Source: Amoebophrya sp. A120 (Eukaryota; Protista; Dinoflagellata). From it: a DNA stretch of 64,000 bases. This document shows, one piece after another, positions 1 through 34,236 of this stretch (positions are counted from its first letter, which is position 1; each line of letters opens with the position of its first letter). The notes under the pieces were generated by a model that saw nothing but the letters and a program-made list of their open reading frames with translations, ran no database searches and was not told where the DNA came from. The stretch covers positions 1,447,216 through 1,511,215 of the forward strand of contig CAJINV010000011.1 of assembly GCA_905178155.1 (NCBI GenBank), written 5' to 3'. Position numbers and translations under genes: made by a program.

Positions 1-3000
1 CCAGCAAGGACCTCACTCGTCTCGTTTCTTCATCTTCGCCATATTTGCGTATTTCTTCGTGTCCGTCGTGGTACTATCGGTATGAGAACAAACCTTCTAC
101 CTGCCACCTGCTCCACAACCGAAAGAGCCGCGGCCTGGCGTTCCTAGATGTTCTAGCTGTCTCGTCGTCCACGACGTGCTTGCTCTCCACCCTACAGAAG
201 CCGGCGCACGCGGTACAGAACCGGCAGAGCAGCAGGAGAAGCAGCAGTAGTAACTAAAAGAAGGATACTTTTTTAGAGGCAAGCGCACTAAATTGGCGAG
301 AAGATTTTCTTTTGGCTTTTCGCAGTTCAAGCCTGCGAAAGATTGGCGCTCCGCAGTCGAAGACACAGGCACCAAAGTTGTACGATGAAGATCAAGATGC
401 CAGAGTCAAGACCCCGTCTCGCCCATAGTTGTGCTTGCAGCACCGGTAGGAGATGAAGAAGATGGATTTTCGTTTTTGGGTCGCAGTTCAAGATGAGAAG
501 ATGAGACGATGAAGAAGTTCCAGTCAGGGGGCGTGTAGTCGTCTGTGCGACTTTGCTGGTGACTGCAACTTCTTCCTCCGATGGTGTTCCCTTCCCGATT
601 CAATATTTTTCCGATGTAGTGCCCTTCGCGGATTCGCTTTGCAGTAGCAGTACTTGACCTATCGGGATTCAAGATTGATGATTAGCTTCACTATTTGAAA
701 TTAGTGTTCGTAGTGACAGCTCCGGGCGGCCGCTGGGGGATTTCGGTGTGACTAGCTGCTGGCGACTAGTCTCCATTTATGTTCGGGGAAGAAGCACGAC
801 TACAAGATGTTGCTGATGACTTCATATCGGGTTTCGAGATTTTAGGCACTAGTAGACTTTGGCGAAAAGCAGCCAAGCTAACGTAGAACACACGTGCAGA
901 GGTGCGGAAACGCCGGGAGAACAAAAAGAAAAACCCCGGACAGCAGAAAGCACAACAGCAGTCAGGACGAACGAAACAAGGAACAGTACGCAGCGGAAGA
1001 GACCACCGACACGAACGCGAGACATCACGAAGCAAGAACATGGAGCAGTATGGGGGCGTAGAACGATTTCGATTTCGACAACAAGCTGCAGCACGGAGCA
1101 CTGACTACGATTTTTAGACGCAGGAACGAAAAGGGAAAATGGAATACAGTTATAGTAGCGCGAACAGCAGCAGCAGTGATGACAACAGGCGCTGCGGTCT
1201 TTCGGATGCAAGATTTTGGAACACAGCAATGGGGGCGCGGAACGACCTTGACTTCAGCTTTCAAATGCAGGGACCAGGAGACGCGGAAATTTGAACGCAG
1301 GACCAGCAGCAGCAGTGACGATAGAAAGACGCGCAGTTTTTTGGATGCAGGGTTTTCAGAATTCGCAGTGCAGCATGCGAGCAGCTTTTGTTTTCGGATA
1401 GACGGTGGAGAACTTCGTATGGCGTTAGGGGGCAGTGCCGCCTGCCGATGCTGGAGAGATTTGTTTTCGATCGACCTCAACCTGATTCCCGTTTTCCATC
1501 CGACACGCCGATGCTACCAACAGCCGGTCGATAAGCTTTTGCACAACTTCGCCATTCTTCCAGTGGGAATGAAATTGCTTCTGTACCACGACCGCCTTGG
1601 AAGAGTTGTTGATGACCCCGCGGGATTTCGAATCGAAGACAACATGACGACCACAGGCGATGCCAGTACTGTTTGCGGAGCAAGTATCCCTCGCGACGAC
1701 TTTGTGTACACTGATCGGCGTGAGCTTGCTTTTCAGGCTTGAAAACGAACCGACTCCGGATTCGAGATTTGTCATGCAGGTTTACGCGGGGGGCGAAGGA
1801 TTTGTCTCTGTTGTGAACCGACGAAAGATTACGCCCGCGACCACCGCACGCAGACTTTCCGATGCCGATCTCGATCAAGACGCCGATGCTGATTATTTTC
1901 TGACGCAAGATATCCGAGCAAGGACTCGCTTCTCGAGAACGCGACGGAGAGTTATCCTGTCGACGAGAGGAGATCGGAATTTGTGATGCTGGATTTCGAT
2001 AATTGTTGGGCGACGAGATGAAGAGCCTGATCCTGTGCGAAGGCGACGATCCGAATTTGTGTTGCTGATTACGGACGCTAGGCGTTTGAATACGACGAGA
2101 TGTTTCGACTTGGGACGCGGCGATGGATTGGAAGTGGGATCCTTCAGTTGGTGCTTGCGATATCGAACGGGATTTGCGGATGGAGATTACGATAACGAAT
2201 CAATTGGATCGCCGATGGGAACCTGCGACGACAAGAGACCGATGCTGCGATGAGAAGAAACCGATGCTGTGATGGGAGAAGATGATGTGATGAGAATTGG
2301 AAGACGAAGCTCGTGGAAGCAGTTTATGGATTTATGCTAAACAGATTTCGATTACGACTTAGAATTTCATGTAGGATGTAGAGTCTGAGTTTCTATTGCT
2401 AGTAGTTTCCGTTTCAAGCTTCTGTGAGATTTATGCATGGTTTTAGATTTTGATTATGAGAAAAAGCGTTGGGGGCGGTTTGTGTAAATGAAAACTAGTT
2501 TTGAACGCTGTTTCTCATAGATCAAAACTCAGAAAATGAACAGGATGATAAGGGAAAGCCAAGAAATCGATCGAGCAAGAAAACAGAACGAAAATGAAGG
2601 AAAAGCAAAGGAAATCTTGCCACGATCGAAAGGAAAAGGAAAAGAGACGAAGAGAAAAGGAAAAGCAAGGAAATTAGGTCTGATTTCTTGTGAATCCGCA
2701 TCACAAACTGGATTTTCTTACTACTTTCAAGCGGAGCCACGGCTACGGGCGTTTTAGGAATACGAATTTAGCATAAGACAATGGAAAAACTAGACTTGGG
2801 ATAGAGAATCTGTAATGCGTATCTGTGGAATTCGATGTAGTTTTAGATGGTGTTCGATTATGATTTCGGTGCGTACGCGTCTGAAAAATTAACCTCTCCA
2901 TTTCGAAACTAGATCCTACAAGCCGCGGCCTGGCGTTCCTAGATGTTCTAGCTGTCTCGTCGTCCACGACGTGCTTTCGTGCAGCTCGCCTGCCCAGTAT

Positions 3001-6000
3001 TGTGTGGCAGAACCACGAGAACCTCCGGCAGCAGAAACGGTTTCTGTACGATGAGACGCTTGCTTCGAAGCTTCACGGCCGCAAACTGCGCGCGCTCGTG
3101 CTGTACTACATGCAAAAGCATCGTACTAGTATCAATCTTCGCATGACAAATCTCCTCAGCTTGAGAAATAGAATTTGTAATGCGGATTCAACTTAAGTAA
3201 GAAAGAAACTTGTAATGCATGAATGCGATTAATAGTATGTTTACGATACTTTTGCACAGGATATGCTGCATCCGATCATTGCGCCGGAGCTCAAGCTATG
3301 AACTGCAAAAGTATCGTACTCGTATAAATGCATTACAAAGTTCCCCAGCATGATAAGTGAAATTCAAATTTGTAACGCAGATTTGCCTTAAAAAGACTAG
3401 ACAAAGATTTGTAATGCAACTTTTGCATTTAGATTTATACTTACGAATACAATACGATACTTTTGCGCAGGATACAAGCCCGTCACCGCCGAACTGGGCA
3501 CGGAGGAGCATTTGAGCCAGGAACTCGCGCAGGAGAAAATTTTTAAAGTGTACTGCAACGACGTGCACACTTTAGCAGACGCAGAGGAGGCGATTGGGCT
3601 TGCCCGCGCGTGCAAATGGGATATCCTGCCGGGGCCAAGGGTACCGCTCAGTGGGTGGAACGAAAAGGCGCTTGCTGGTATTAGAGAAATGATCGCGAAG
3701 ATTTTTGCAATTTCCTTTGATCATCATGATTGAACAATTATGGATGCAACTTTTGAGCACTGCAGTAGGACAGAAGCAGAACAAACCGTGTCTGATAAAA
3801 TATCTCACTCCGAACAACACACATAAAAACCCCCCTCCACATCTGATCGAAGAGGCTACTGCCGTTCAAGAGCAGCGGCGAAACCGTGGCAAGAGCCTGC
3901 CCGAGGGCTGGCACCTGGATGACGGCAAGGTCGATGAGGAGAGCAGCGAGTACGATTGCGACGAGGTCTATGCTGAAAAAAGGACCCATTCCCATCCAAT
4001 TTGTGATGCAAAACATGCATAAATTGCTGTGTTTGTCATGCAAAACATGGATGGGGATGGTGTTTAAGTTTTTTCTGTGGATAAGGTCGCCTGGACGGAG
4101 TACCCGGAGATCCGAACCCAGTGGGCGGAAAGTTGCTTCACCTTCATCCCCGGCTTTAAGCCCGTTCCCGCGACGTTTTTCCCCGCAACTCTGTTTCACG
4201 AAGAGCTCCTCGAGCACGTGAAGAAGACCATGCCGGACGTGGTCTTTATTAACGCCGCCCTGTCCGTTTCCCAGCAGCTGTACATCGAGGAAGCCTGTTA
4301 TGACAGTGCACAACTCCACCTTCCCCTCATTTGTATAGCATGGCCGGCAATACAAGCATCAGCAAGACTGCCGGTTTTGCATGACAAATTTGCACAGGAC
4401 TGTAGTACTATTTGGTCTACCAGAACTTGTCATACAAACAGTGCCAAGAGGCAAAGGGTGGATTTGGTATTTTGCATTACAAATGAGGGGGAGGGGGAGT
4501 TGTGCACTCTCATACCTGTCACCAAGCGTTGCGGCAGCACGGCGAGGACTTGTGGAAGCAGGAACAGGAGAACTTCACCCCCATGGAGGACCGGCTCAGC
4601 CAGCACTGCCCGTCCTACATCGAGGTTTGCGACCGGAACCGCCTCGTGCTGGAGATCTTTGCGGCCCGCGCGCAGTCCCGCCTCGCGAAGCTGCAGGTGG
4701 CGATCGCGAAGCTGCGGTTCGTGAAAACGCGACTTTCCCGCGGGTCGAAGATGCGTTTACGGGCGGTTTTGGAGCTCACGGACCGGAAGCGGCAGCAGGG
4801 CAAGGTCGGCATGGGCCAGGACGAAATGACCCGGAACCGCAATTGCCAGGGCGCTTTAGAAAGCGAGCCCACGGAAACGGAGGAGACGCTGCTGACGAAC
4901 TACGAGCGGAAAACGCGGAAGCAGTTGGCGGTGTTGGAGAACATGCGGAACAACCAAAGGGAAACGCGCAAAAAGTCCGGCGTCTGGACGATCGGCATGG
5001 TGGGGTATACGAACGTGGGCAAGACGGAACTGATGAACAAACTTCTATGCATGGCAAAAGCATCGCACTAGTCCGAATCTTCGCATGGCAAATTTTCTCA
5101 ACAAGAAAGTTGCCATTTGTCATGCGGGTTCAGGTAGAAAACCAGACTTGTCATGCATAACTGGGATTAGTACGAACGAGTACGATAGTACTTTTGCCAC
5201 GCATAACTCCGAATAAAAAACAACGTCAGCAACGAGAAGCAGTTCAACGATCAGGAGAGGCTGCGTATGACACCCTCAGAATGGAAATCCTCAAAGTGGA
5301 AATAATTTGTGATGCATGAAATGCGACACCAAAAAGACTGTATTGCAGAGAACGCAATGGAGGCCTACTATTGTGCTTCTACGGGTTCAGAATTGGGCTG
5401 CTGATTAGCACGAGAGAACGGCACCCCTTTGCCTAACTAGCATGGCAGACACATTCTGAGTGCCCGGGAAATTTGTCATGCGCCGACTACAAAAGGTGCT
5501 CCAACTGGAGTCGTTTTTTTGCATTACAAATCATTTTCACTTTGAGGATTTCCAACCTGAGGCTTTCATACTGCGCGCGCGGGATTTGCTGTTCCAAACT
5601 TTGGACACGACACTGCGGAAAATCACGTTACCCAAATCCAAGCGAATCGCGATTATGGCGGACAGTGTCGGGTTTGTGCAGAACTTGCCGCACTTCCTCT
5701 TCGAGGCGTTTCAAACGACGATACACGAATTATTGGAGTGCGACATCGTTCTCCACGTCCGCGACATCTCCCACGTGAACAGCACTTCCCAGAGGGACAC
5801 GGTGCTGCAGACTTTGGCCCTCGCCGGGTTTGATTTCGAGTCCACGCCGGTGGTTGAAGTGTGGAACAAGATCGATTTGATTGGGGGAATATGCAAGAGG
5901 ACAAAAGTATCGTTCCAGTAGAAATTGCTTCTCAGAAGAAACGAAAAATCGGAATTCCTGATGCAGACTCAGACAGAAAATGAGTAGATTTCGATTTGTC

Positions 6001-7043
6001 CTTCAAGTAGAACGCGTCAATTCATCATACGAATGCGACGATACTTTTGTACTCCAGTATACGGAAACGATAAAAACCGGTGGGCAGAAATGCAAGAGGA
6101 GATGGCGGCGTTCGAAAGTGGACAGGGAAGGTATAATGGAGGACCGGCAGCGGCTTCTGCGTCAAAAATGAGTATAGCTCCAGAAACAAGTGGTCGATCA
6201 GCGAATGCAATCTCCACGACGGCCTCGGACATGAACAAGGCCGCGACATTGGATCATTCCACTCTAAGTCAAAAGCAATCTTCGTCTGCGACTACCGCCG
6301 TGCCCGTCCCACGTTCCTGCGGGGCCAGGCGGCACGAGAAGCAGCTGAAGAGGCAGGTCGAGAGCGAAGTCCGCTGGTGCGCAACAGAAGATCTTGATCT
6401 CAGTCTCACAAGCTCCGCCTCGGAAAACGAAGATGTTGAGTCAACAACGAACGTAGAAGGCCACGCGAACACCACTGCCGCCAACCGCTACTTAGAAGAT
6501 CATGGCACGAAAAACCCGACCACCACGAATCCCTTTCCGGCGGAGCCGAAATTTGTGGATGCGGAGACGGCGGGGAAAAAGTACCCACCAAAAGCCATCG
6601 TCCCGATATCGGCGTTGCAAGGCGAGGGGATTGATGTGTTGTTGGAAACCATTGAGGCAGAGTTGCAGAAGCGAAACAAGTGCAATTTCAACGTGTTCCA
6701 GTACGACTTGCGCTTTTCCTCCCGGGTGTCCGCGTTTTTGCACGAGGAGGGATTATTCTTGCAGGACGAGGACCAAGAAGTGTCCGACTGCGGCCGGCTC
6801 TTGACCATCAGACTAACGATGGATCCGTGTCAGGCCGACCGGCTGGGGAGGTTCCTGGAAGCGCTGGAAAGGGACAGTGGTCATGGCGGAAATAAGAGTA
6901 GGGGGAAAGAGGTCGCGCAACATGATCGTGGAGGCGCTTGTTTAAATGCAACACAGGCAACATCTAGTAATGCAAGAAATGCTTCTCGATTTCAGCACAG
7001 AACAACGCACAAGAAGAACTCAACGAGCCGAAACAGGATTTAA
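1..7043 (+). CDS. hflX: HflX/GTPBP6-family GTPase (5' end outside window), 9 introns
   Basis: Hand-spliced exons: <1..79, 2923..3103, 3269..3296, 3480..3677, 3871(or 3853)..3968, 4089..4298, 4520..5045, 5211..5265, 5576..5889, 6067..7043. Motifs: EVCDRNRLVLEIFAARAQSRLAKLQVAIAKL (HflX N-domain), G1 VGYTNVGKTELMNKL, LLFQTLDTT, DSVGFVQNLP, DIVLHVRDISH, G4 WNKID, ISALQGEGI. The first exon and intron are uncertain. Confidence 0.9.
126..2976. repeat. 56-bp exact direct repeat (126..181, 2921..2976) flanking a 2.7-kb unique insert in the HflX 5' region
   Basis: AGCCGCGGCCTGGCGTTCCTAGATGTTCTAGCTGTCTCGTCGTCCACGACGTGCTT occurs at both positions; both copies read SRGLAFLDVLAVSSSTTC in the HflX frame. 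Confidence 0.95.
3104..3263. mobile_element. Introner/MITE-like non-canonical intron, family A
   Basis: TSD TGCTG (3099-3103, 3264-3268); ends TAC...GATA; IR TGCAAAAGCATCGTA / TACGATACTTTTGCA; removal gives ...RALVL|HPII. Confidence 0.88.
3297..3474. mobile_element. Introner/MITE-like non-canonical intron, family A
   Basis: TSD CAAGC; TATGAACTGCAAAAGTATCGTA...TACGATACTTTTGCGCAGGATA; removal gives ELK|PVTAE. Confidence 0.9.
3969..4083. mobile_element. Introner/MITE-like non-canonical intron
   Basis: TSD AGGTC; TATGCTGAAAAAA...TTTTTTCTGTGGATA, inner IR CCATTCCCATCCA / TGGATGGGGATGG; removal gives DEV|AWTEY. Confidence 0.88.
4299..4514. mobile_element. Introner/MITE-like non-canonical intron
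   Basis: TSD CCTGT; IR TATGACAGTGCACAACTCC / GGAGTTGTGCACTCTCATA; removal gives EEAC|HQAL. Confidence 0.92.
5046..5205. mobile_element. Introner/MITE-like non-canonical intron, family A-related
   Basis: TSD ACTTC/ACTCC; IR TATGCATGGCAAAAG / CTTTTGCCACGCATA; removal gives MNKLR|IKNN. Confidence 0.88.
5266..5570. mobile_element. Introner/MITE-like non-canonical intron
   Basis: TSD CTGCG; TATGA..CCTCAG..TGGAAATCCTCAAAGTG / CACTTTGAGGATTTCCA..CTGAGG..TCATA; removal gives ERLR|ARDLLFQTLD. Confidence 0.92.
5890..6061. mobile_element. Introner/MITE-like non-canonical intron, family A-related
   Basis: TSD GGGAA/CGGAA; IR ACAAAAGTATCGT / ACGATACTTTTGT; removal gives IDLIGG|NDKN. Confidence 0.85.
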
Positions 7044-7216
7044 ATGCGAATGCAATGCAATATACGAAAGAAAGGCACGTATTGACGAGGATAACTATAG
7101 TGATGTTGATGTCGCGGTAGAATGCGTCTTGACTGATGATGATAGCGACCGTTTGTGTTCTCGCAATGCGTAATCGTGTAAACGACAACGACTATCCTCG
7201 CAATGCGTACCAGGGT

Positions 7217-10113
7217 GCGAAGTTTGAACCTCGCTCGCCCACCACGCCCGAGGAAGTTTATGGGCGAGCGTGGTAGGCAGCGAAATTTTGAATGGGAGAC
7301 GTGTTTTTGAATAATGGGCGGAAAAGTGAAAACTAGCCGACACGGGTAGGCATTTGGAAGCCTGCCGCCATTTGTTGCCAAGGTGGAGGGGTTCCACTCG
7401 ACGCGCTCGCCAGGCCATAGGAACAAAACGCTGGCGCCCTTCATGCGTCAGCGGTTCAAGGAGATGGCGCCAGGCAGGGCGCCAGACACGCGCAAGGCCG
7501 TGCGGTCCTTGTGCCGTGGGCGCTGCTTTTGCCATTTGGCCCGCGCCGAAGCGCGGGCCTATCTCCAACAAGACACGCAGCGGGCCCAGTTTTGGCGCCG
7601 GCAAAGATGCCGGGGCCGCGCTGGACCTCGTGGCGGGTCGCTTCGCCGCTCCCGCCCTGCGCGCGCCCGACCTGAAGCGCAGCGCGAATGTGTTGCGCAC
7701 CTTCTCGGGGCCCGCAGCGGCGCCCCGGGCCTACGCAAGGGGCAAGGTAGGCCGGCGGGGCGCTTGGTTCGTTGCTATGGGGGCGCCTGTGTTTTTCGGC
7801 CGGTGGCGCCGGAAACAACCCCGCCGGGCGGGCGGGCGTCTGGTGCCACAGATGAAAAGGGAGAGGCGCAAAAAAAACCGTCGTCGCGCAAACGCCGACG
7901 GATTTTCGCCCCAGGGGGTCTCCCACCGGTGGCCCCGGACGGCTGCAGAGGGCTGACTGGCTGACCGCGATGCGCTGCTCGAACTCAAGAGCTCTTTGCT
8001 CCCGATCCTCGCTGTCTTCTGCGGCTGCACGTCCGTGATGAACGACTGCAAATCGCTGACTGACTCCAAGCCGTCCCGCGGTTGGCTAGGAACAGCGCCG
8101 CTGGCGCACAGCCCGGCTGTGGTGGAGCGGGCAGCCCCGGCAAGCGCGCCAGGTATTGGCAAGCCCTATATGCCCCCTTGAACTACTATCGTGCGCACAG
8201 CTTCAAGTGGCAGCTGATCGGGGCGCAGTTGGTGGGCAACGCAGGCAAGACGAAGCGGAGCGACGGAGCGCAGCGCGCTGCCCCAGGGGGCGGGCCGCCC
8301 CTGGTCGCTCGCCTCACCCTGCGCCGCGCCTTGCGGAGGCGGCCCTATTTAAAGCCTAAAAAATTTATGGCCTTCGCCCTTTCCGGCACAGGCTTTCGCT
8401 TCTGGCTTCGCCCCCTTTTGCTCTTCGCGGGTCTCTGCTGCATTGCGGCCGCCCACCTGAGGCACTTCCGGAATTGGGAGAAAGCTGGCGGGGTGTCATC
8501 CTTGTGCGCGAGACCTTTGCTGCGCTCTAATTAAGGGCCGCGCCCAAGCTCTTAGTTTTTTGGCCCGTTTTTGCGTCTTACTTTTTGGTCTTACTTTTTG
8601 GTCTTACTTTTCGGTCTTACTTTTTGGTCTTATTTTTTGGTCTTACTTTTTGGTCTTACTTTTTGGTCTTACTTTTCGGTCTTACTTTTTGATCTTATTT
8701 CTTGGTCTTACTTTTTGGTCTTACTTTTGTTTCTTATTTTTAAGTCTTTTTTTTTTCTTTTATTTTTTTCGCCTAAAATAGCGCTTATTTTTTCTCTTAT
8801 TCCCCCACCTATTGCGCGCCCGGCCACGGGCCGGGGGGTCTTATTTTTTTTTTTATTTTTTCTTTTATTTTTTTGCACACTGAAATCGCACACGAAATCG
8901 CAAAAAAGGCGCCCGCCAACTTTCGGGCCGTGAAAATAAGCCCGCCGATAGTGGGACGAATAGGCGGCCTCAAGGGCCCGCGGCCCGGCTCCTTGGCGCC
9001 TTCTTATTTTTCCCCGACTCTTAATTTCGCGAGGCCCGGGTGAAGGATGGCGCGTTCGCGTGGACCACGCCCCGGAACACCGCCCTGACCCTTGGCGGGG
9101 TGTGTTGCCTTTTCCCCCTTCAAGGCGGCCGTGGATTTCGCTAATTGTGTCCGGTGCCGCGCCCACCTCTTTGTCCGACCGGGGCGGGCGTGCCTGCCCG
9201 CTTGGCCTTTGCCGGATAGCGGCCGTCGTTCTGCTTCGATGCCGACCCCCGGGCGGGTAGGCGCGCCCTGAGGCCAACTTTGTGGCCGCTCTCGCCATGT
9301 GGTGATCCGGCTGCCTGGGTCCCGGCTTTTGGCGCGACCCGTAAAATTTTTAACCGTTTTTTAGCAAAAGCCCCGCATGGCGCGGCTCCGGGTGACTCGC
9401 CCGCCGCGCGCGCCCGCGCGGCTTTTGGCAGCGCGCAGCCCAGCCCGTGAGGGTGGCAACGAACGCGATGCGCCTGCGCCCGGTCTCTCACTCAGGTTGG
9501 CCAGTTGGGCAGTCCGATGAACGTGGACGAGGCGAGCGCGAGCGCTTTCTCCCGGGCGCGCGGCCAGCGGGCGCGGGTTCGGTCAGCGGGCGCGGGAGAT
9601 GTTGACGCCGCCCATGAAAACCGGCCAGCGGGCGCGGCCCCCGATGTTGTGTGGCTCCTGATGGGCAGCCGCCCGCGGAAGGCGAGCAGCGAGCCGGCCC
9701 CCGATAGTCTGCGCGCTGCCCCTGCTAGCGCGCAAACCCTGAGAGGGCGCTGCCCGTTGTGTTGGTGGAAGGCCCTCGACGGCGGACAGCCTCTGCAAGC
9801 ATGCAAGCAGCTAGCCCCCAAGGGCGCGGGCAGCCTCTGCAGGCGAGCCGGCAAAGCTGGCAGCTTCGCGCAGCCCCTGGGTGGCGCCGAGCACACTACC
9901 GCGCGGGCGGGCGCGCCCGTCGCTCCGGGCCACTGTGCTCTCCGTCGCACGCTTCTCGTTTCGCTCCGTGGCCATGTTCTCGGTTGGTCCCTCCGCCTGC
10001 GTTCGGTGAGCCCTATCCCTTTCCTGTGCCTTGGATTCACATCTCCCCGTCCCCTGGACCCCCTCTACCGTACAGCCCCGACCCCGGTGGTTTTCGCCAG
10101 GGTTTGGTTTGTT
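7217..10113. other. GC-rich non-genic island of unknown origin
   Basis: Abrupt compositional shift; overlapping Arg/Gly/Pro/Ala-rich ORFs in all frames with no recognisable motif; CCAGGGT at 7210-7216 and 10114-10120. Confidence 0.55.
8575..8730. repeat. 13-bp tandem repeat (GGTCTTACTTTTT)n, about 12 copies, decaying into T-rich sequence
   Basis: Read directly from the sequence. Confidence 0.92.
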
Positions 10114-10623
10114 CCAGGGTAGCAAATCGAGCAAACGATAGTGACTGTTCTCGCAATCATGCGTGCGATGCGTATGACTATCAACGAACTGGAAGTAAGT
10201 CTAATCTAAGCTGCAGCAACGACCTCTATATATTTATATTGAGAACACAAACGCTACGCGTTAAGCCGAGACACAAGCGCGCATGGAGAGACGCGAAGGT
10301 GCGCGAGAGAGTGCGCCGCAAAAAAAGGGGCTGTCTTTAAAGTCTGAGCGAAAGTGCAGGGACGAGGGGTGCAGTTGATTTTCGTATTTTTTGACGCACA
10401 TGCACGACGTCTGCAAGAAAACGTTCATAGGGTCGAACACAAATGACACCCCAGGATAAGAACAAGAGCCGTGTCTTACAAACTACGTCTACGGGCGTCG
10501 GCGTGCAGAAGAAGCTGAAAAGCTTTCACTTGAGGAGCAGAGATATTGCCTCGTCGTCCAAAATCAAAAGCGACCTGCAATACCCGCTTTTCAAATAGGA
10601 GCCCGAAGGCTACGCCGACGAGG

Positions 10624-13600
10624 ATGTGGATCCTGCGGTTGAGCCAAGAATTCGACTTCGATGTCGCGGGAGAGAACATCACCTACGATGACTACAGCCG
10701 CACAGGAACTTCAAGTAGCTCAACAAGCGGGAATAGACATTCATCAGGCTCGTCTTCTTCTTCCTCCTCTTACGGAGACAACAGCACAACGACAGACGGA
10801 TCGTCCTCGACGAACAAGCTTCTCCCCAGCCCAGACGAACGATGGCTGCGAAGGAACTCCTCGGAGACATCAAGCGCCAGCAAGTCGCTCCAAGCGGCCA
10901 GCGTCCCACTCATGACGACGAAGCGCACACACGAGGTGCAGGTCCCGGAACATTGGCTGGGGAACTTGATAGGAGGAAATCAAAACAACTCTGGTTGCGC
11001 CGGACGAGCGACTGCAGTATCAGACCACGCGGCTCCGAGACTAGGACCAGAACAACATCCCACGGGCGAAATTCTTGATGCACCACCCATCCCCACCACA
11101 ACGCGGAAGCGCACCATCGCCGCGTCGGTGTTTTACGGCACGGATTCGCAGAAACATGGAAACAAACCCGTGGTGGAAAGAGGGGTAGAGCCTGTGTGCT
11201 ACTATGTGACGGTCTACAACCAGGAAAGGGTTTGCGAAATCAACTTTCCGCAGAACTCGCCGAGCAAGAATGTTATCAATTGCGACACGTGCTTGCGGTT
11301 TCTCCAGTTTCTCGCGTTGACAGACAGTGCAGTGGTGAGTGTGACCGGGGACGATGATCGAGCTACATCTTCCTCGTCTAGCAAGAAGTTGTTTTATCAC
11401 AATGAGGTGGAGGAGGACCACCAACATCTCCATGATGACCCCGCCTCGGCCCCGACAACGGCGTCGGACGCTGATTCTCCGTTGAATCAGGAAGAAGATC
11501 TCCTGGCCGGTGACACACTAGCAGCTGCTCAAAATCAGATGCAAATTAATCCAGCGCTGCTTTCCCCAACCTCCTTCGCCCTCGGGTCAGCGAGAACGTG
11601 TAGTACCTCCGCGAGCACGGTGGAAAAGGCGTATATGTGCTCTTCTTCGGACAGACGTGCGGAACAAAGCGGTAGCTGCGCTGGTGGGCCGGACACTTCG
11701 CCAGAATTGTTGTCGCGCACATCAAGCAAGAGCCGGGTCCTCGTGCCCCACAGCGCACGAAGTTTTCGTGCAGCAGATGCATTAGCGCAAGTTTTTCACG
11801 ACGAAGTAGGTGGTGCATCTTCAACACCAGAGAACGACGGATATAATTTTTCGCAAACCTCCACACTAACCGACTCGCAGCGGCGGTTGCGGCAGTTCGA
11901 CAAAAGTCTTCTGCACGGCAAATCCGACGACCTGATGAACTGGCACTGCTTGAAATGCGACAGCCGCCAGTTTTTCACCTCGAAATTCAACGAAAAGGAC
12001 AGCCGCCGCCGCAATCCGGGCGGTGCGACCGCGGGAATCACGGGGTCGAGCGCGGCCTTCGCTTGTTCCGGCGGCGCGGTGGTGTTACGGGACGAGGCCT
12101 TGGTGCAGTTGATTCTCGGCGCCGAGATTTTTGGCTATGCGGAAATTCTGACCGACTTCGTCGACCGATTGGCGTCGGAGTTAGAAACGCAGACCATTCT
12201 GACGGTCGCGCAGACGGTGTTTCTCGGGTGTTACCTGAAAAAAGCCGCACTTCGGCAGGAGTCGTACTGGCTGTTGCGACACTACATCACGCACGGTGCG
12301 CCAGGCCTGTACATCGGAACCCAAACCCCGAGCAGCACTGCGACGTCCTCATCGGCTGCACCAAGTAGTACAGCCACCTCGACGGCGGGGACTTTGGCGG
12401 GAAAGCTGCTGTCCACGTTTGGCGCGGATACTACAGCAGCTACAGGCAGTGTGGTGTCCAACAATGAGTTCGATTACAACGCACCGAATCACCACCACCA
12501 CCAACAAGACCCCTCGATCCTGGCTTTGTCGAAGACGAGAAAAACCTACAATGCGAACAACGGAGTTTGCAATGTGTTTTACGACGGTGGATTTTTGAAG
12601 TTCTCGGAAATCAACATCGAGATTTCGAAAATTTGGAACGACTTCGAAAAGTTAGAGAAGAAGGAAAAATTGCAGCACGCGCAACCAGCGCCCGGGTTTT
12701 CGCTTTGCAAGATCCGGGTTTTGCGGGACGGAAAAGACATCTACCCACAGGTTTACCAGCTATTACGTGACCACGACGACGAGCTGTTGTTGCAGGCAAT
12801 CAAGGAGTATCAACTGCAAATATGCCTGCTGGGTGTGGAAGATTGTATTGCAGGTTTTGCATGGTCATGGACCAGAAGGTCTGGCATGCAGGGAGTAGCA
12901 TCACAGGTTCTGCAAGGGCTTTGTGATGCCTCTTCTGCATGAGAAATCTGCTTGCAGCGTGGCCAAAAATGGACAGTTTTTGCTACCGGTGCATGACAGA
13001 TTTTTGTCCGACTGGCAGAGAGCATCACAAGTTTGCACCTTTCCAGAGGACCCAGGAGACATTTTTGCAATGCATAAAGAGTCCGACAACGGCGCGATCC
13101 GCATCTACAGCTGCAGTAAGAAGTGGACGAGCAGCAAAACTACATCAAGTGCGACGAGACCGTCGTCCTCCAGCGCTGCGACAGCCCAGCCGGCAATGCC
13201 AAGCAAGAGTGGTGGCCAGAACTTTGGCACCAGGAGTCTCGACGAGGATGAGGATGACCTCTCGTCCTGGGCGGCAGATTTGTCGAGTTCATCGTCGACC
13301 GCCGCCCCTGCGGCTGCAAACCTAGAAAGGTGTAGCGCTGGTGGTGGTGACGAAGCAGCCGCAGCTACTGCTACAATTTCCGGTACAAACAGGACGAGTG
13401 TTGACCACGAGGAAAGCTGCGGGATGCGAACGGAGATGGAGGGCTGGAGCGTCCGGGACTTTGCAAGGCATTTCGTCGGGGAAGTGCGGGTGAACTTCTG
13501 GGGAACGAAATTCGAGGTACGGATAATATTTTTTTGTGTTGCTAGTGCTACAACAACTTGATCACGATTTGTAGAAGAAACTGAAACCTGTATACGTTTT

Positions 13601-14607
13601 CTTGTTTGATGGCACCGAACACAAAAAGCAATCAAGCGATCTCATAAACACGAAATCAACAGCTGATCGACTACACCTACGCCAGCCCGGCCGGCAGCGC
13701 TCCCGCCCCCAACGGCATGCCCCCGAGCGGGAGACGGTTCGATCTGGGTTTTGAAGTCAACTTGCAGGGCTGCGTACCGTATGAATTGTAAAAATGTCTG
13801 GGTCTGGAAGTAGAGTGCCAGGCTTGTCATGCGGGTTTTCCATGACCCATGAGGTCTGCTATGTAGGACATAGCATGACAGATTTTGTGAGAGTTCTATC
13901 ATGCCTATCCTGCATGAGAAACTCCCTCCAAACTTGGTCGAAAGTGGACTGTTTTTGGCACTCATGCAACACAGATTTCTGCATGATTCAGATTTAGCAT
14001 GACAAGTTGCAATCTTCCAGACCCAGACATTTTTGCAATCCATATACCGCGGAAGATCACCTGTAAGTTTCATCACGCGCCGGTGAAAGAGGTGGAAGAG
14101 GGCGAGGAGTCAGGTATGTTGAATGCGGTTTCTGCATGACGAATCATAAACTTTTTGCTGAAACCTCTTCAGCATCATAAGTTGGTGAAATTTGTGATGC
14201 TTTTTGTACATGATATGCGGGAAATTTGTACTGCACATTCATAAACAGCCTCCGCCTCCAGCAGCGGGTTTTTCTTCAGCTCGAACCCAGCGCCACGCCC
14301 ATCGGCGCCAAGAACCACTTCTAACCCACAAGAGAGCACCTCCAGAAGCACGGAAACTTACACCAACATCGAACCGCGCTGGAACGAGAAGCAGGGGAGC
14401 TACGTACTCCCCTTCTATGGCCGTGTGAAGAAGTCTTCCGCGAAAAACTTCCAGCTGGTGGAGGGTTCGAATGAGAAAGAAATCCTGTTGCTGTTCGGCA
14501 AGATCAAACGGGAATGGTTCGCGTTGGACTTCCGGCACCCGCTGAGCCCGCTAGACGCGTTCGGGATCGCAATCGCGTCCTTGGCGAAAAAACGGGCGGT
14601 GAATTAG
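10624..14607 (+). CDS. Tubby C-terminal domain protein with a long N-terminal region
   Basis: Exons 10624..12807, 13082..13516, 13663..13779, 14050..14113, 14249..14607. Tubby motifs FVGEVRVNFWGTKFE, PRWNEKQGSYVLPFYGRVKKSSAKNFQL, LLFGK..FALDFRHPLSPLDAFGIAIASL. Confidence 0.88.
12808..13076. mobile_element. Introner/MITE-like non-canonical intron, family B-related
   Basis: TSD AGGAG/AAGAG; TATCAACTGCAAATATG...CATTTTTGCAATGCATA; removal gives AIKE|SDNG. Confidence 0.85.
13780..14044. mobile_element. Introner/MITE-like non-canonical intron, family B (reverse orientation relative to the 55400 copy)
   Basis: TSD TACCG; IR TTGTAAAAATGTCTGGGTCTGGAAG / CTTCCAGACCCAGACATTTTTGCAA; removal gives GCVP|RKIT. 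Confidence 0.93.
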
Positions 14608-22395: not shown

Positions 22396-25300
22396 ATGGG
22401 CCGCGACCGGCCGCGGACGGCCAATACGAACATCGTGTGCACTTTGCCGCACCGAAGTCGGCACGATGTGTATACAGGGACCAGACCGAAGTCCTCGGGT
22501 CCGACGAGGAATCCAACGAGGCAAATTCGGGAGAACAGCCTGGATATGGCCTATACCGAGGAGGACAGGGAGGAAGTGGTACAGAAAATATGAATAACAA
22601 TAAGTAAAAGTATCAGGATCCAACAATTTATTGCGACCGGATTAGTTTGCATGTCGAAGGCAGCACATCAATGATTAACGGTTTCGATTTATTGTCATGC
22701 CAGTACTGTACTAGAGCTACCTAAAAGCAGAAATTCACATTGAAAATGAAACACGAACACAGCGTATCTACATCGAAGTCGCAAAGCGGTGCCTGGAAAA
22801 CAGCGACATCCTAGACCAGGCAAACCGAAGTCCTAGGTTCCAAGAAGCTCTGAAAAGACAAGGAATCGAGTGGCCAGAAATCCAGACAGAGGCAGATGCA
22901 ACGTAATTGGCTTAGTTTTGGTGTTGCTTGATGAATTTTGATTCTGCCATCGAGAGCGAAAGGACATATTAAGTAGACATGCGGCGAAATCATGAAATTA
23001 CTTCCATCCTTTACCTTTTGCACCAGGTACAAAGTGAAAATGCTGACCGATGTCTTCCTCGAACGAAAGCGAATCACTGCGGAGCACGAGAATGCGAGCG
23101 ACGCAAAGAAGCGATTCAACGCGTACATTGACAAATTGAATGAGGAGGAGCAAAATTTTATCCGGCACGAAACGCGAAGGCAGAACGCCGCGGAGCGGTG
23201 CAGAAACGCGTTTAGGATGAGAAAGAAGAAAATTGCCGTATACATGCGTTGATGTTCTTTCGTGTTTCAGGGTACTGATTCTGATGTTGTGCCACTATCA
23301 TTTGTCATGCTCAACATGGCACGGCAGTTGAAGATCTACGCTTTCACGATCATCTCCCGTGTAACTGGTTGTGGAGCTGCATGATCATGGCAAACCAACA
23401 TCTAAAAATAACCTCAGGAACACGAGCACGAGTCGTTTCTGAAAAGCCAGCGCCGCATGGAGCGCGACAACTCCAACGCGGACAAGCTTCGCGACCAAGC
23501 GGAAAAGCGCGCTCAGAAGGTCGCGGATTGCTTCGCGCAAGCCGCGCAGCGGGAGCAGGACAAGGTGAACGAGATTTTGGACCGCAGGGCGAAATCCGAG
23601 AAGCGCCTGGCGGAGAGGGCGGAGATAGAAGCGATAGAAAGGGCGAAAAAGGCCCAGGCGTTACTGGATGCGGAGGAAGAACGGAAACAGCGCTACGACA
23701 AGATTGCGTCGTTGAAGTTTGGCAAAGCGGAAGAATTTCAGTCAAAGTACTTAAACTTAATATTCTTGTGGGAATGTCTTTCTTGTTCTTCTTCTTGTGA
23801 AAAAGATTTTGTGTTTGATTTGTCATTTGTGCTGGTGATAGATACGCAATGTGCAAGAAGAGAATCTTTGTGGTCACGCTTAGTGAGTACTGAAAAAAAA
23901 AAATCCACCTCAGACTGTCCGAGAAAATGAAGCGGTCGGCCGACCATCGGGCGCACATGGAGGCAGAGCTTAAGATGCTAAACGAACAGAAAAACCTGGC
24001 CATGAAGCACCGACAGCATCACGCGTTACGATTGGAGAGGCAGAGACAGTATTTACTACTCAGCATTTTTTGTTGTCGTGAACACAAAGATGATCATGCG
24101 CCAGCACAAACACAATACTGTCTATGTATGAAAACACAAATTGTTGCGATTTTCAATTTGTTTTTTTTACGCGCATGATCGATCTGTCGATGAGAATGTT
24201 CGAGGACGAGACCTCCAAAGAATATAAAAATCTTTCCACCCACCCCCACGACCAGATACTACAACGAGCGTCGTGCGGACGACGTGACTATCCAGCAGGT
24301 CGGCCACGTGCTCCAAGGCGAGCTTCGGGCTGCTGTGAAGCGGCAACGGCAGGAGTGGGAGAAGCGGAAAGCGTACCAAATGCAAATATGTCTGGATCTG
24401 GATGACTACAGGAGTTTGTCATGTTTGGCCAGCATGGCTCTTGTCAAGTCTACTGTGATGCTCTTTAACCAAACGCAAACGAACCAATTTTCTGTTTCTC
24501 TTTTGAAGAAATGCAATTTGCCATGCAGAAGAGGCACCAGCACCTAGCAAATCTAAAAAGTCAAAAACTTGTCATGCTTGGCAGCCAAGTGAGGCGTCCT
24601 CCTGATTGTCAAACCCGCATTACAAGTTTCCAGTCCTCCCAGGCATATTTGGAATGCATAAAGCGGTGTTTGAGGCGGCGCAGCGGGAGTCCGACCGGGA
24701 TCTGAAGAACGTGGACGTCCCGGGACTATCAACTGTAAAAATGTCTGGGTCTGGAAGGTTGGAGCTTGTGATGCTTACTTTGGACTCTAAACAAATCTGT
24801 ATTGCATGACCAGCAAGAGGAGTCTAGTTTGTTTGTGCTACGCGGGGAGGGCATTTCTCGTGCGGAGTAGGCATCAGGAAGCCCTCCAGAAATCTGTGAT
24901 GGTAGGTCGTGCATTACAGACATCCTGGGTCATGCAAAATATGCATGACAAACCCGGCAATATTCCAGACCCAGACATTTTTGCATTTGATAGGGACCGG
25001 GCCGCTACGACCCCGAGCCGCACAAACCCTACTGCGGCTGGACCATGCCCAAGTTCGTGAACCAGGAAGCCCGGAAACTGGGCCCCGGACCGGACACGTA
25101 CGAGATTAAGCGGGATTTGAAAACGGGGAGCGTCAAGTGGTACAAGCCTAAGGAGCTCTTGGTCGCAGAATTAAAGAAGCAGACAAAGACGGAGGAGGAA
25201 CTTTACGGAAGCATAGTAAAACTTAATATCATGCTTAGAAGTAGAAGTACGTAGACGTACTGTCTGAGTTCCATTTCTTTTTTTTTCTGTTCAACAGAAA

Positions 25301-27666
25301 CACAACAGTTGGATCATGATGTGTGCATGTGCTTCCCGGTAAGAGGACGCCACATCTCGATAGTTAGAGGTGGGAACGCACCAGCAAGAACTTTCACTTT
25401 CACCTCCGACAAATATTTTTATCACAGAAACGCAACAAGAAAGTGAAAACGGACTCCGCTTTGGCGGTGTCTCCCAGACCCAAGTTCATCGGGCCCGGCC
25501 CGGCGAACTACCACACGCCGCCACCACGGAAATACCGAGGGATCGACGACGTCATGCAGGACTTTGACCAATTGTGCACCACCTACTCGACCCGGCTGAA
25601 CCCGAGCCCGAGAAGGCACGAGAATAGAACGAAGCCCGATAATTTGATCACCATGCCCATCGAGGGAGCGAGAAGGCCGCAGCTTAGTACTAGAGATAGT
25701 GTTTGTATCATTTTCGATTTCTTTGCTCTTCTTTCCCATGCTTGTAGTCGAACTACATGAACAAGATCCTGCCCTTTTATTTTGTGTCCCGTGCGGCTGC
25801 AGCGAGCCCCTGCCCGCTCACCGTATGTGCGGACACAAGGGCGGTATCTAAATCTACTATAACCGTCGAAAATAAAGTTAAAGTGACGAACATATTTTCG
25901 ATTTTGATCAGGCGTCCAGCACTCGAAAAAATCCAGCAACGGCCCCGAGGGTTCCCCATTAGACGACATCTTAGCGAAGGAAGTTCCCCAAGCTGCTCTT
26001 CTCGGCGGGAGCCAACAAGCAGGTAGTTCCTCTCTGCCCGATATTCAAGTGAAGAAAGCCAAGCCAGTCACCGGCGGGAGTGAGTCCGGCGGTAGCAGGC
26101 CGGGGAGCAAGCAGAGCGGTCGAGGGGCCGCGAATAAGTCTAGTACTGCGTCTGGTCTGAAAGATTCATCGACGAATCTGTTGCCAAAGGTTGAAAGAAA
26201 ACCAACTGCCGGCTCCAGTACGTCGAAAGAAGCTGCAGGAGCAGCTGCACCAGCGACCGCGAGTAGGACCTCCAGTAAAGGCAAGAAGCCGGCGTCGAGT
26301 GTTACTTCCTCCGTCGTGGTGGAGGAGGATCGAATATTAGGAGCGACTTCTTCCTCCAAACCAACAGAATCCTCCGTGGATCCGGTGCCACCCACGACTT
26401 CAGTGGAGATGGAAGCCGCCTCTGCAGGAGGACAAGACCCGGTCGTGCAGAGCACAGAGAGTGTCGGAGGTGTCGGATTGCTGATGGAGGAGAGCATATC
26501 GCAGGAAAAAACTGTTTCACTGTGATGATTTAGATTTTGCAAGATCTGCAACACAAGTTTGGTACACATGGCACAGAAAATTTGCCATGCGCAGTTCCCA
26601 AGGGAAAACACCCTTAAAAATGAAAATCCAATGGATTGCATGTGTAGCAAGACAAATAGCTGTGTGTTCCATTGTTCCCTGCACCACAAGTTCACAGTGA
26701 AACAATTTTTTTGTGGGATAGAGCAAGTTAGCGATGGACTCGAATACGGACGGAGGCACGGATGCGAACCCGGTCGAGCCCATAGTGCAGGAAGAGGAGT
26801 TGGCCGGGTTGATCAAAGCGGAGCCATCGGGAGAACAAGGAACTTCTGCGGTTTTGTCGGCCGGTGAGAGCAAAGAGGACGCGGCGGCGGGAGCAGATGG
26901 TAGCTTAGCGGTAGGTGAGTCGGAACCAGCTGCACGAGCAGAAGCGGCGGAGGCAGCTGCGACAGAGGAAACTTCCAAGCCGGCAGAAGAAGAACCAACA
27001 CCTGCGGCTGGTGCACCACAAGAATTTGTCCAAGCTACGCCAGCAGTAGAAGCGACGGAAGATAGTACGGTGCCTGCGGCAGTAGAAAAGGAAGACTCAG
27101 CAGAAAAACCTGCTGTGGAAGAGCCAGTCGCTGCACCGGCAGAAGACGCAGCACCTGCAGCTGCAGAACCGACGGAAGAAACGCCGGCTGCAACGGAGGA
27201 ACAGGCACCACCAGCCGCCTCTGAGGAGGTAGCCGCAGAAGAAAATCCCGTCGAGACTCAGGAACCATCAGCGGCAAAACTAGAGGAACCAGCAGCTGTC
27301 GCAACTACCGAAGACGCCGCTGCCGCGCTGGCCGAAGCTGCAGTCGTAGACGAATCCGCGCAACCAGAAGCTGCAGCTGCTACCGAGGAACTACCAGCTG
27401 CTGCGGAGGAAACGACCCAAGCTCCGGTCGAAGAAGTGGCTGCAGAACAAGGCACTGCGGAACCAGCAGCGGCTCCTGACGAAGCTGCGGCACCAACGGA
27501 GGAAGCCGCACCGGCAACAGAAGAAGCCACAGCAGAGGAACAAGAAGCTGCTCCTATTGCGGAACACGAGGTGAGCAAGGTGTTGGACTTGGAAGAGGCG
27601 GAAGACGACACACAGCAGGTCGCGGCTGACTCCGTGCAGGAAATCGCTGTGGAGGAGATTGCGTGA
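22396..27666 (+). CDS. Coiled-coil protein with PGPGxY (SHIPPO/STPG-type) motifs and an acidic Ala/Glu/Pro tail, 10 introns
   Basis: Phase-consistent exons 22396..22578, 22763..22902, 23027..23237, 23418..23746, 23914..24048, 24256..24373, 24666..24726, 24998..25215, 25428..25686, 25912..26496, 26726..27666. Motifs VPGPGRY, GPGPDTY, GPGPANY, typical of flagellar microtubule-associated proteins. Confidence 0.78.
24374..24660. mobile_element. Introner/MITE-like non-canonical intron, family B-related
   Basis: TSD AAGCG; TACCAAATGCAAATATGTCTGG...CCAGGCATATTTGGAATGCATA; removal gives KRKA|VFEA. Confidence 0.88.
24727..24992. mobile_element. Introner/MITE-like non-canonical intron, family B
   Basis: TSD GGGAC; TATCAACTGTAAAAATGTCTGGGTCTGGAA / TTCCAGACCCAGACATTTTTGCATTTGATA; removal rebuilds VPGPGRY. 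Confidence 0.93.
26497..26720. mobile_element. Introner/MITE-like non-canonical intron
   Basis: TSD GAGCA; TATCGCAGGAAAAAACTGTTTCACTGTGA / TCACAGTGAAACAATTTTTTTGTGGGATA; removal gives MEES|KLAMDS. Confidence 0.9.
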
Positions 27667-31575: not shown

Positions 31576-31725
31576 TATGAACTGCAAAAGTATCGTACTC
31601 GTATAAATGCATTACAAATTTCCTCAGCATGAGAAGTATAAATTTGTAATGCAGATTTGCCTTGGGAACAAGATTTGCAATGCAAGATCTGCATTCATAC
31701 GAGTACGATACTTTTGCACTGGATA
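31576..31725. mobile_element. Family A MITE-like element outside any recognisable gene
   Basis: TSD GCACT; the first ~43 nt are identical to the intron at 3297; right end TACGAGTACGATACTTTTGCACTGGATA. Confidence 0.92.
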
Positions 31726-32272: not shown

Positions 32273-34236
32273 ATGGACCGCCCAACCATGACCGCGTCCT
32301 CTTCCTCGAGCAGCACGCGGCCCAACCCGTGGATGCTCACCGAGGAGAACCACTGGTGCCAGTGGCTGCAACGGGAATCCAAGATCTCCCGCTACCAGTG
32401 TCTCCACGAAAACAACGAGCCACCGATTGGGGAAGGAACGTATGGGCGGGTTTGGAAATACCTGGACAAAGAAGCGAAGGACCCGGACCGAGGAGCTTTA
32501 CGGGCGTTGAAGGAGATTTTCGTGCGAGCCCGGTCCCACGTATGGAAGTGTCAGAATCGAAATTGACAAAATCGAAAAATTTGTAATGCACAAAATCGAT
32601 GTCAGTTGGAGCCTCAGTTTCCAAGTGGCGCATGACGAATTTCGGAAGCACCCAAATCCAGTCTGTCATGCTGTTTGGGCAAAGAAGACTCCTCCTGTCG
32701 TGCTACTCTGGCAGAACATTGTATACCCCTAAACAGGCTTGCAATCGGTCTCATTTGCCTGCTCCCCAATACAGGCCTTCAGTGCCGTACATTTTATGCA
32801 TCACAAATTTTTCGACTTTGTCGATTTCGATCCTGACACATCCATACCACGAGGGATTCCCAACGCAGGCCGTCCGGGAAATATCCACAGTAAATTTCCT
32901 GTACACGTACAAATGCAGTCTCTGCATGACAAAAGTTGCCTTCAATCCTAGTCTAGCACGACAAGTTGGACACTGCAAGTTAGCGAAATTTGTAATGCAT
33001 TTTGTACATGTACGGAAAATTTACATTGCATAGGAAATCCGCTGCTTGAAGAAGGTCGTGCACCCGAATGTCGTAAGGCTCCACGACGTTTGTATCGGGT
33101 TACCCGATTTGCAGCAGGAACACAATCAGTTCACATCGAAGGTTTATCTCGTTTTCGAATTCGTCGAGCATGACCTCAGTGGGCTGATCCGGGCGAGGAA
33201 GGGCGTGCTCGATTTAGCGGAGGCCAAATGTTTGGCGCGGCAGATGCTGGACGGGCTGGTGTATTTGCACGGGAAAAACCTGATGCATCGGGATTTGAAG
33301 TTGTCAAATTTGCTACTCTCCAAGTCTGGCGAGGTGAAAATCGCGGATTTCGGACTCGCCCGGACGGTGGAGGTCGTGGAGAATTATACCTCGACGGCGT
33401 CCCAAATAGGAGTGTTCAACAGGGCAGGTGCTGGCGCAAGCAGCAGCTCGGGTGCATCATCTTCCGCAGTGGGCAGGAACACAGCAGCACGAGATCACAG
33501 CAGCAGAGGTGGAGTAGAATCAGGTGCAAGTTCCGCCAACGCGAATCCGCAACGAGACGTGGAAAACCCCCCTTTCACTAACAAGGTTGTGACTCTCTGG
33601 TACCGGGCCCCGGAGCTCGTTCTCGGCAGCAAATATTACTCCCTGGGCATCGACACGTTTGCGGCTGGGTGTGTTTTAGCGGAATTAGTCACCGGGAGAG
33701 TGCTCTTCCGCGTCCAAAATGAGCAGCAACTACTGGAATTGCAGGTTCGGCAACTGGGCACTCCGCCGAGACATTTGTACAAACAGGACCCGATTACTTA
33801 CCCCCTGGCGTTTGACAACAGCAAGATTTCCCAGTTTCTGAACCAGACACTGCAGACTGTACCACCGCAGCCGCCGCGGATCGAGGAGTATTTGTTCCAG
33901 ATTCTCCGAGACCGGAACATCCCAACGGATAATTTCTCGGCCCGAGCCTCGAGTTCCATGGCGGGGTTACCCGTCCGGGGCGGGCACCAAGCGAGACTGC
34001 AGGCCGCGAGCGCTACGTCCGCCGGTGGAGCAAATTCGAAACGGTTTCAACAGTTGACGCAAGTGATTCTGGGGCTGCTGCATTGGGACGCGAGTAAACG
34101 GTTTTCCGCGGAAGACGCATTTAACCACGCGTTTTTCACGGACGAACACCCTTTGCCCTGTAAAGCGTCGGATTTGCGATTGGACATGGGCGAGTCCTTT
34201 CACGGGTATACGGCGAAAAGGAGGAGGGTGAACTAG
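32273..34236 (+). CDS. Cyclin-dependent kinase, CDK9/CDK12/13 (PITAIRE-type) group
   Basis: Exons 32273..32540, 32852..32881, 33038..34236. IGEGTYGRVWK, ALK, EGFPTQAVREIRCLK, YLVFEFVEHDLSGL, HRDLKLSN, DFGLAR, FTNKVVTLWYRAPELVLG. Confidence 0.92.
32541..32846. mobile_element. Introner/MITE-like non-canonical intron
   Basis: TSD CCACG; ~55-bp imperfect IR TATGGAAGTGTCAGAATCGAAAT... / ...ATTTCGATCCTGACACATCCATA; removal gives RSH|EGFP. Confidence 0.93.
32882..33032. mobile_element. Introner/MITE-like non-canonical intron
   Basis: TSD GGAAA; TATCCACAGTAAATTT..GTACACGTACAAA / TTTGTACATGTAC..AAATTTACATTGCATA; removal gives AVRE|IRCL. Confidence 0.92.

Follow-up and report, generated by a model that had tools for sequence, protein, structure and literature searches.

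Repeat mismatches at introners of Amoebophrya sp. A120 suggest that the upstream target-site copy is exonic and the downstream copy is spliced out

A 64,000-nucleotide stretch of the Amoebophrya sp. A120 genome (contig CAJINV010000011.1, forward-strand positions 1,447,216 to 1,511,215; hereafter the window) contains genes interrupted by introners, intron-forming elements that each lie between two copies of a short target-site repeat. At these elements the upstream copy probably supplies the base found in the mRNA, the downstream copy is likely spliced out with the intron and largely free to change, and the bias towards silent differences between the copies likely reflects selection on the exonic one. 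The two cut sites probably lie 0-1 nt upstream of the hairpin formed by the element ends and 4-5 nt downstream of it, without GT-AG borders.

The window holds 17 introners of 115-306 bp with terminal inverted repeats, each between two 5-bp direct repeats (Table 1). The elements start with TAT (TAC in two of them) and finish with ATA, and a confident reading frame was obtained for 15 of the 17. Repeat pairs are identical at 14 of 17 elements and mismatched at three, a recount that replaces the 13 identical pairs of 16 genic ones given in an earlier note on this DNA. The three mismatched pairs have the coordinates and the synonymy claimed there, with reading frames backed by RNA contigs: ACTTC/ACTCC differs at repeat position 4 (CTT vs CTC, both Leu), GGGAA/CGGAA at position 1 (GGG vs GGC, both Gly), and AGGAG/AAGAG at position 2 (AAG vs AAA, both Lys), each time at a third codon position. 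Assembly error as the source of the mismatches is disfavoured: at all three pairs, the DNA contigs of run X5 span each copy and show 0 other letters, an agreement that speaks against consensus error only, X5 possibly being the window's own source.

The base that reaches the mRNA was read in the contigs of run X1, a single run available as contigs only (i.e., the majority form), whose RNA status is a guess and not on record. The exon chains of the two host genes, 2653 and 2867 nt long, are exact spans on two X1 contigs; these also lack the GT-AG intron at 3678-3852 and leave the intergenic region 7148-9975 uncovered. Eight window elements are missing from the contigs, and the aligned parts contain 0 other letters. 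Where repeats are identical, the alignment assigns all five bases to the downstream piece (e.g., 4293 followed by 4515). At the mismatched pairs, the upstream pieces end on the mismatch itself (5044, 5885, and 12804), and therefore the mRNA holds T, G, and G, the base of the 5' copy at three of three sites. In the first record, the piece 4515-5044 is followed by an unlisted 51-letter gap fitting 5210-5260, and the pieces 5571-5885 and 6063-7089 are contiguous (1028 to 1027); in the second, so are 10374-12804 and 13079-13514 (2431 to 2432). In one element the cut thus follows position 4 or 5 of the repeat, and in the others it comes after at least positions 1 and 2. Positions 1-4 of the 3' repeat ACTCC (5206-5210) are intronic in the majority form, and the majority mRNA does not alternate between the copies. 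The expectation that bases at 5044/5209, 5885/6062, and 12804/13078 would reveal the true junction was borne out, with the 5' copy read each time. The exons of the window genes are uncovered in the raw-read RNA runs X8 and X9.

Table 1. Host genes, introners, and target-site repeats of the window (positions counted from its first letter)
Feature	Position	Strand	Length	Details
Host gene 1	2921-7089	+	868 open codons	7 introners (3104-3263, 3297-3474, 3969-4083, 4299-4514, 5046-5205, 5266-5570, 5890-6061) and one GT-AG intron (3678-3852)
5' target-site repeat	5041-5045	+	5 bp	ACTTC; exonic through position 4 at least (T at 5044 in RNA contig)
Introner	5046-5205		160 bp	TAT...ATA terminal inverted repeats; missing from RNA contig
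3' repeat	5206-5210	+	5 bp	ACTCC; C at 5209 missing from RNA contig
Introner	5266-5570		305 bp	Identical repeats CTGCG/CTGCG; junction not placeable from identical copies
5' repeat	5885-5889	+	5 bp	GGGAA; G at 5885 in RNA contig
Introner	5890-6061		172 bp	Missing from RNA contig
3' repeat	6062-6066	+	5 bp	CGGAA; C at 6062 missing from RNA contig
Host gene 2	10374-13514	+	902 open codons	Part spanned by RNA contig; broken by introner 12808-13076
5' repeat	12803-12807	+	5 bp	AGGAG; G at 12804 in RNA contig
Introner	12808-13076		269 bp	Missing from RNA contig
3' repeat	13077-13081	+	5 bp	AAGAG; A at 13078 missing from RNA contig
Introner	13780-14044			Identical 5-bp repeats
Introner	24374-24660			Identical 5-bp repeats
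Introner	24727-24992			Identical 5-bp repeats
Introner	26497-26720			Identical 5-bp repeats
Introner	31576-31725			Identical 5-bp repeats
Introner	32541-32846			Identical 5-bp repeats
Introner	32882-33032			Identical 5-bp repeats
Introner	47382-47617			Identical 5-bp repeats
Introner	55400-55661			Identical 5-bp repeats

A larger sample of the same element families was provided by a pattern scan of one metagenome assembly, which yielded at least 151 loci, 80 of them with full flanks; the viral and prokaryote collections, scanned in like manner, contained no matches. The loci belong to another strain or species: two of their proteins share 96% and 87% identity with proteins named as A120, and X1, X2, X3, and X5 do not cover at 95% the exons of L008, a locus chosen for its mismatch at positions 4 and 5. 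Recall of elements blind to the repeats gave 361 elements (15 from the window, 346 from the related loci), with zero to five mismatches in 265, 56, 19, 9, 5, and 7 pairs, respectively. Pairing of repeats nearest to the element ends was rejected, as false pairs arose from internal repeats. With the repeat bases masked, a confident frame was called for 256 of the 346 elements and the other 90 were dropped; all 15 frame calls covered by an orthologue were confirmed. A revision of frame calling changed 26 of 273 best frames, and the orientation and GT-AG counts given below rest on the first frames. Full-length relatives exist for 259 of 273 elements, and X5 depth reaches 2e5 on elements vs about 45 on exons. 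Elements can be dense, with 12 in a single 839-codon frame at L070 (185-5291) and 13 in 6 kb at L063, where exons are as short as 13 bases including repeats.

Orthologues indicate the polarity of mismatches in four of these elements, from two genes, and in all four the derived amino-acid change lies in the 3' copy. They match the 5' version at L070 528 (SE, not CE), at L070 3891 (PF, not stop-L; covering positions 1, 2, and 4), and at L021 303, where they have ECL and not DCL; at L021 644 the 5' version is the closer one (MI vs KI/AI). The 3' version of L070 3891 reads TAG-CTC, an in-frame stop within the 839-codon frame that runs across the 12 elements. Across the framed set, stops number one in 3' versions and zero in 5' versions; at L065 4982 the 3' copy would yield TAA, with a low local frame margin. 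Homologue searches gave no polarity for L038 (none found) or L062 (gap at the site), and the GC/AT direction of mismatches is uninformative in this respect. Heavily mismatched 3' copies at L027 2378, L062 3334, L070 3891, and L042 3646 carry TAG at differing positions, which could be chance or drift to an acceptor-like motif.

The earlier note had reasoned that, with one copy being unconstrained intron sequence, mismatches would fall without regard to codon position. This premise fails because the exonic copy contributes synonymous differences of its own. With an exonic 5' copy and a free 3' copy, differences would arise at double the neutral rate at synonymous sites and at (1+omega) times that rate elsewhere; therefore the synonymous to non-synonymous rate ratio equals 2/(1+omega), at most 2. 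An estimate of omega was sought from paralogues, and no usable ones were found. The three synonymous mismatches of the window have P=0.03 under a codon-blind model and P=0.066-0.107 under the one-exonic-one-free null, so that on their own they are unsurprising.

Among the 256 framed elements, 188 have identical repeats, and synonymous/non-synonymous counts are 22/16, 12/22, 3/18, and 4/25 for pairs with one, two, three, and four or five mismatches, the last being mostly mispairs or odd repeats. Pairs with up to three mismatches contain 93 differences, 37 synonymous and 56 non-synonymous; the synonymous share of 40% exceeds the 27% that a codon-blind process with the substitution spectrum of the elements themselves would give (P=0.005). 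A model with one exonic copy predicts 39-43%, and one with both copies coding at a ratio of 5 predicts 65%. The rate ratio was estimated with repeat-blind recall and a likelihood model that allows for elements of varying age and for a fraction of unrelated pairs; filtering to at most one or two mismatches inflates it. The maximum-likelihood ratio is 2.5 (about 1.5-4.4); with the previous set of frames it was 2.9 (about 1.7-5.1). A ratio of 2 fits (twice the log-likelihood difference, 2dLL, 0.77), whereas 1 is rejected (12.3), as are 4.5 and 5 (4.3 and 6.0). Dependence of mismatches on codon position, as the earlier note proposed, is thus upheld in the related loci; its observation that all mismatches are synonymous stands for the window but does not generalize. 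Synonymous mismatches occur at a rate of about 0.10-0.13, close to double the divergence of elements per copy (at most 0.059), as drift of both copies would produce. Mismatched pairs also adjoin older elements (nearest-neighbour divergence 0.13-0.14 vs 0.115, P=0.03). Mismatch rates along the repeat show no position effect and are uninformative. Ordinary purifying selection on the exonic copy is the likely source of the synonymous bias. Since the estimate of 2.5 exceeds the ceiling of 2, either mechanism suggested in the earlier note could still contribute in a weak form.

Several observations weigh against an exonic upstream and a free downstream copy. Single-mismatch pairs alone (23/16 in another count) give a ratio of 3.8 (1.9-7.7; P=0.033 vs 2), the composition of pairs with several mismatches being unlike theirs (14/35; Fisher P=0.005), and the ratio ranges from 1.4 to 12 across window sizes, thresholds, and filters. 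Non-synonymous mismatches per site (0.043-0.052) are somewhat under the upper bound of about 0.06 from element divergence. A codon model has no preference for the 5' version (20/36). At L007 4322, an uninterrupted paralogous repeat encodes K-I, the 5' version K-V, and the 3' version W-I; position 4 thus agrees with the 3' copy there, and either the exon has changed or the cut falls earlier. Besides, a related organism without RNA alignment on its exons is the source of the large set, and the RNA support consists of three junctions in the majority form of one contig run, which does not distinguish a cut after position 4 from one after position 5.

Some of these values would suit a leaky register, in which the cut falls mostly late and a minority of transcripts use the 3' copy, exposing the intronic copy to weak coding selection. 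The ratio exceeds 2 in most subsets, values up to about 4.4 are not rejected, and minor forms would be hidden by contigs. A ratio of 2 nevertheless fits the whole set, the 3' copy with the in-frame TAG persists at L070 3891, and no alternative X1 joint is present among the matches listed; the published splice variability may come from aligners sliding in identical repeats. Such leakage is accordingly considered unlikely. Guidance by the repeats themselves, whereby matching copies aid splicing and the intronic copy is held while residual mismatches are mostly silent exonic drift, would be one form of the constrained intronic copy suggested in the earlier note. Its probability appears lower still. 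The 188 identical pairs would agree with it, and an intronic copy that evolves at between a third and a half of the neutral rate would yield ratios of 2.5-2.9, but 56 of the 93 mismatches are non-synonymous, seven framed elements tolerate three mismatches and 17 tolerate two, and the three mismatched window elements are excised exactly; neither the near-doubled synonymous rate, nor the four derived 3' copies, nor the lack of a position effect is what guidance would predict. Free sliding or recombination-like joining, with both copies used about equally and under full coding selection, would explain the all-synonymous window mismatches and the real excess over the codon-blind share, but as the main route by which either copy could end up in the mRNA it is very improbable, given the 5' base at 3/3 RNA sites and the derived 3' copy in 4/4 elements (jointly P=0.008 under 50:50), the non-synonymous majority, and the rejection of ratios of 5 or more (of these arguments, only the one from the ratio would be weakened by a very high omega).

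The element ends bear on where the two cuts fall if the upstream copy is exonic. TAT is found at 257/266 and 255/266 ends, and A occupies positions 11-13 in 85-94%. Repeat identity is 92-97% at five positions and at background level outside them, and the target sites have little consensus. GT-AG is not enriched (at most 9/194 at any of six possible cuts). Both orientations occur within families (e.g., 18/15, 9/7, and 7/9), and the termini are alike at both gene ends. Variants of the first T number 0/266 at the gene-5' end vs 6/266 at the 3' end (P=0.03, post hoc), and those of the first two bases 1/266 vs 9/266 (P=0.02, post hoc); this invariance mildly favours an intron that starts at TA, i.e., a flush cut. 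The third base of the terminus is dispensable: the introner 3104-3263, whose left end is TAC, is still missing from the RNA contig with the frame exact. Predicted hairpins closed by the paired element ends have fold z-scores of -4.8 (5046-5205), -2.0 (5890-6061), and -3.0 (12808-13076).

Insertion sites show a further bias. Repeat position 1 coincides with the third codon position in 110/256 elements (P=0.005 vs equal), and a palindromic target model predicts 36% vs the 44% seen (P=0.03); with a cut after position 4, this bias would amount to a phase-0 excess. Odd insertions include an exact 8-bp repeat (L065 3321-3600), a 7-bp repeat (L151 76-330), and two elements whose end is separated from the repeat copy by three additional bases (L034 5151-5478 and L004 2123-2341). 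These four could serve as natural tests of a ruler vs repeat guidance.

The following course of events would account for an exonic upstream copy. A non-autonomous DNA transposon, as the repeats and orientations suggest, would insert in either orientation with a 5-bp target duplication, and in the pre-mRNA its ends are predicted to pair into a hairpin. The element plus exactly 5 nt would then be excised, as seen for the eight window elements in one RNA run. The 5' cut would come 1 or 0 nt ahead of TAT, past position 4 or 5 of the repeat, and its 3' counterpart 4 or 5 nt beyond ATA; one element places the cut at position 4 and two more at positions 1-2, and the rest may follow the same rule. The hairpin base, and not GT-AG or repeat identity, is the likely reference point for both cuts, with the flush TA cut slightly favoured, and the catalyst might be a modified spliceosome without U1. 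Mismatches would build up by synonymous drift in the exonic copy and any change in the intronic one.

Introners of Aureococcus and Micromonas are reportedly DNA-transposon-derived introns with target-site duplication, said to recruit GT, GC, or GA and AG sites from the duplication or the element. The introner-like elements of Symbiodinium and Polarella (Roy et al., bioRxiv 10.1101/2020.10.14.339549) do likewise: they are DNA-transposon-derived with a target-site duplication, one copy being intronic and drifting, and some of them function whichever way they are oriented. Unlike in those elements, neither the repeat nor the termini supply GT-AG in the window-type introners, which also lack the GT(GC)-AG borders of canonical U2 spliceosomal introns.

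The closest match is with the introners described for A120 itself (Farhat et al. 2021, PMC7789003). According to the main text and legends of that paper, these are non-canonical elements resembling miniature inverted-repeat transposable elements, with no transposase inside and a mean length of about 240 nt, whose terminal inverted repeats consist of TAT, seven variable bases, and an A run. Their direct repeats are given as 3-5 nt in the text and 5 bp in the Fig. S19 legend. The borders came from Hisat2 and Regtools, and the Fig. 3 legend describes the intron border as unknown and the splice sites as variable relative to the hairpin. U2, U4, U5, U6, and most spliceosomal proteins are reported, and no U1. 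The window elements are alike in TAT followed by seven variable nt and at least three A, border repeats, families, and excision without GT-AG; they differ from the published description in having repeats of strictly 5 bp and a junction that can be assigned to position 4 of the upstream copy or beyond.

A mechanistic parallel is offered by the nonconventional introns of Euglena, which have paired ends, no GT-AG, and, as tested by knock-in, cuts at fixed unequal spacers, strictly 3 nt at the donor and more loosely 5-6 nt at the acceptor (Nomura et al. 2025, PMC12501133). The likeness goes no further: the lineage is unrelated, its motif is CDG/CHG as opposed to the TAT/ATA termini of the window, and the introner termini do not carry the Euglena signature N3-CDG...CHG-N5-6. 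The spacers of the introners would be 0-1 and 4-5 nt, the 3' spacer being the target-site duplication itself, unlike in Euglena. The three X1 junctions fit a fixed late cut such as the Euglena spacers imply, and the L007 4322 paralogue hints otherwise.

Host gene 1, presumably an HflX-like GTPase, has Pfam matches to GTP-bdg_M (E=4e-5) and MMR_HSR1 (E=3e-4), both narrowly under the curated cut-offs. Host gene 2 has no Pfam match, and Rfam has none within the window. Near-perfect short inverted repeats with arms of about 20-23 bp, unrelated to introner termini, lie at 38856-38938. The GC-rich region 7300-10100, without X1 cover, contains, near 8570-8740, a T-rich tandem array with units of approximately 13 bp, along with variant DNA contigs of high depth; it is probably another repeat. 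About 590 raw RNA reads of run X8 match the left part of the element family at 5266-5379, with foreign flank at 5266, and 234 of them stop at 5379 in apparent adaptor sequence, which we take to resemble a template-switch adaptor. This looks like a transcript end within an element copy at another locus.

The elements are already known; the valuable part is the mapping of junctions by mismatches, which yields a testable positional rule. In the literature covered, which excluded subscription papers and Figures S19-S25 beyond their legends, no use of repeat mismatches to place the A120 introner junction was found. The published border could not be placed because identical repeats make it ambiguous. 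Mismatched repeats occur in 96 of the 361 elements, i.e., a fifth to a quarter (some being mispaired), and thousands of natural markers are therefore expected among the 29,850 elements reported for A120 (PMC7789003, main text). It is conceivable, though tentative, that tens of thousands of Amoebophrya introns obey a hairpin ruler independent of GT-AG and U1, cut flush at UA and 5 nt past AUA, that mirrors the 5-nt stagger of the transposase and converges with Euglena, so that an insertion at any site and in any orientation would become a clean intron at once. With mismatch markers, RNA-seq data already available would be enough to locate both cut sites and to reduce the apparent zoo of splice dinucleotides to one positional rule.

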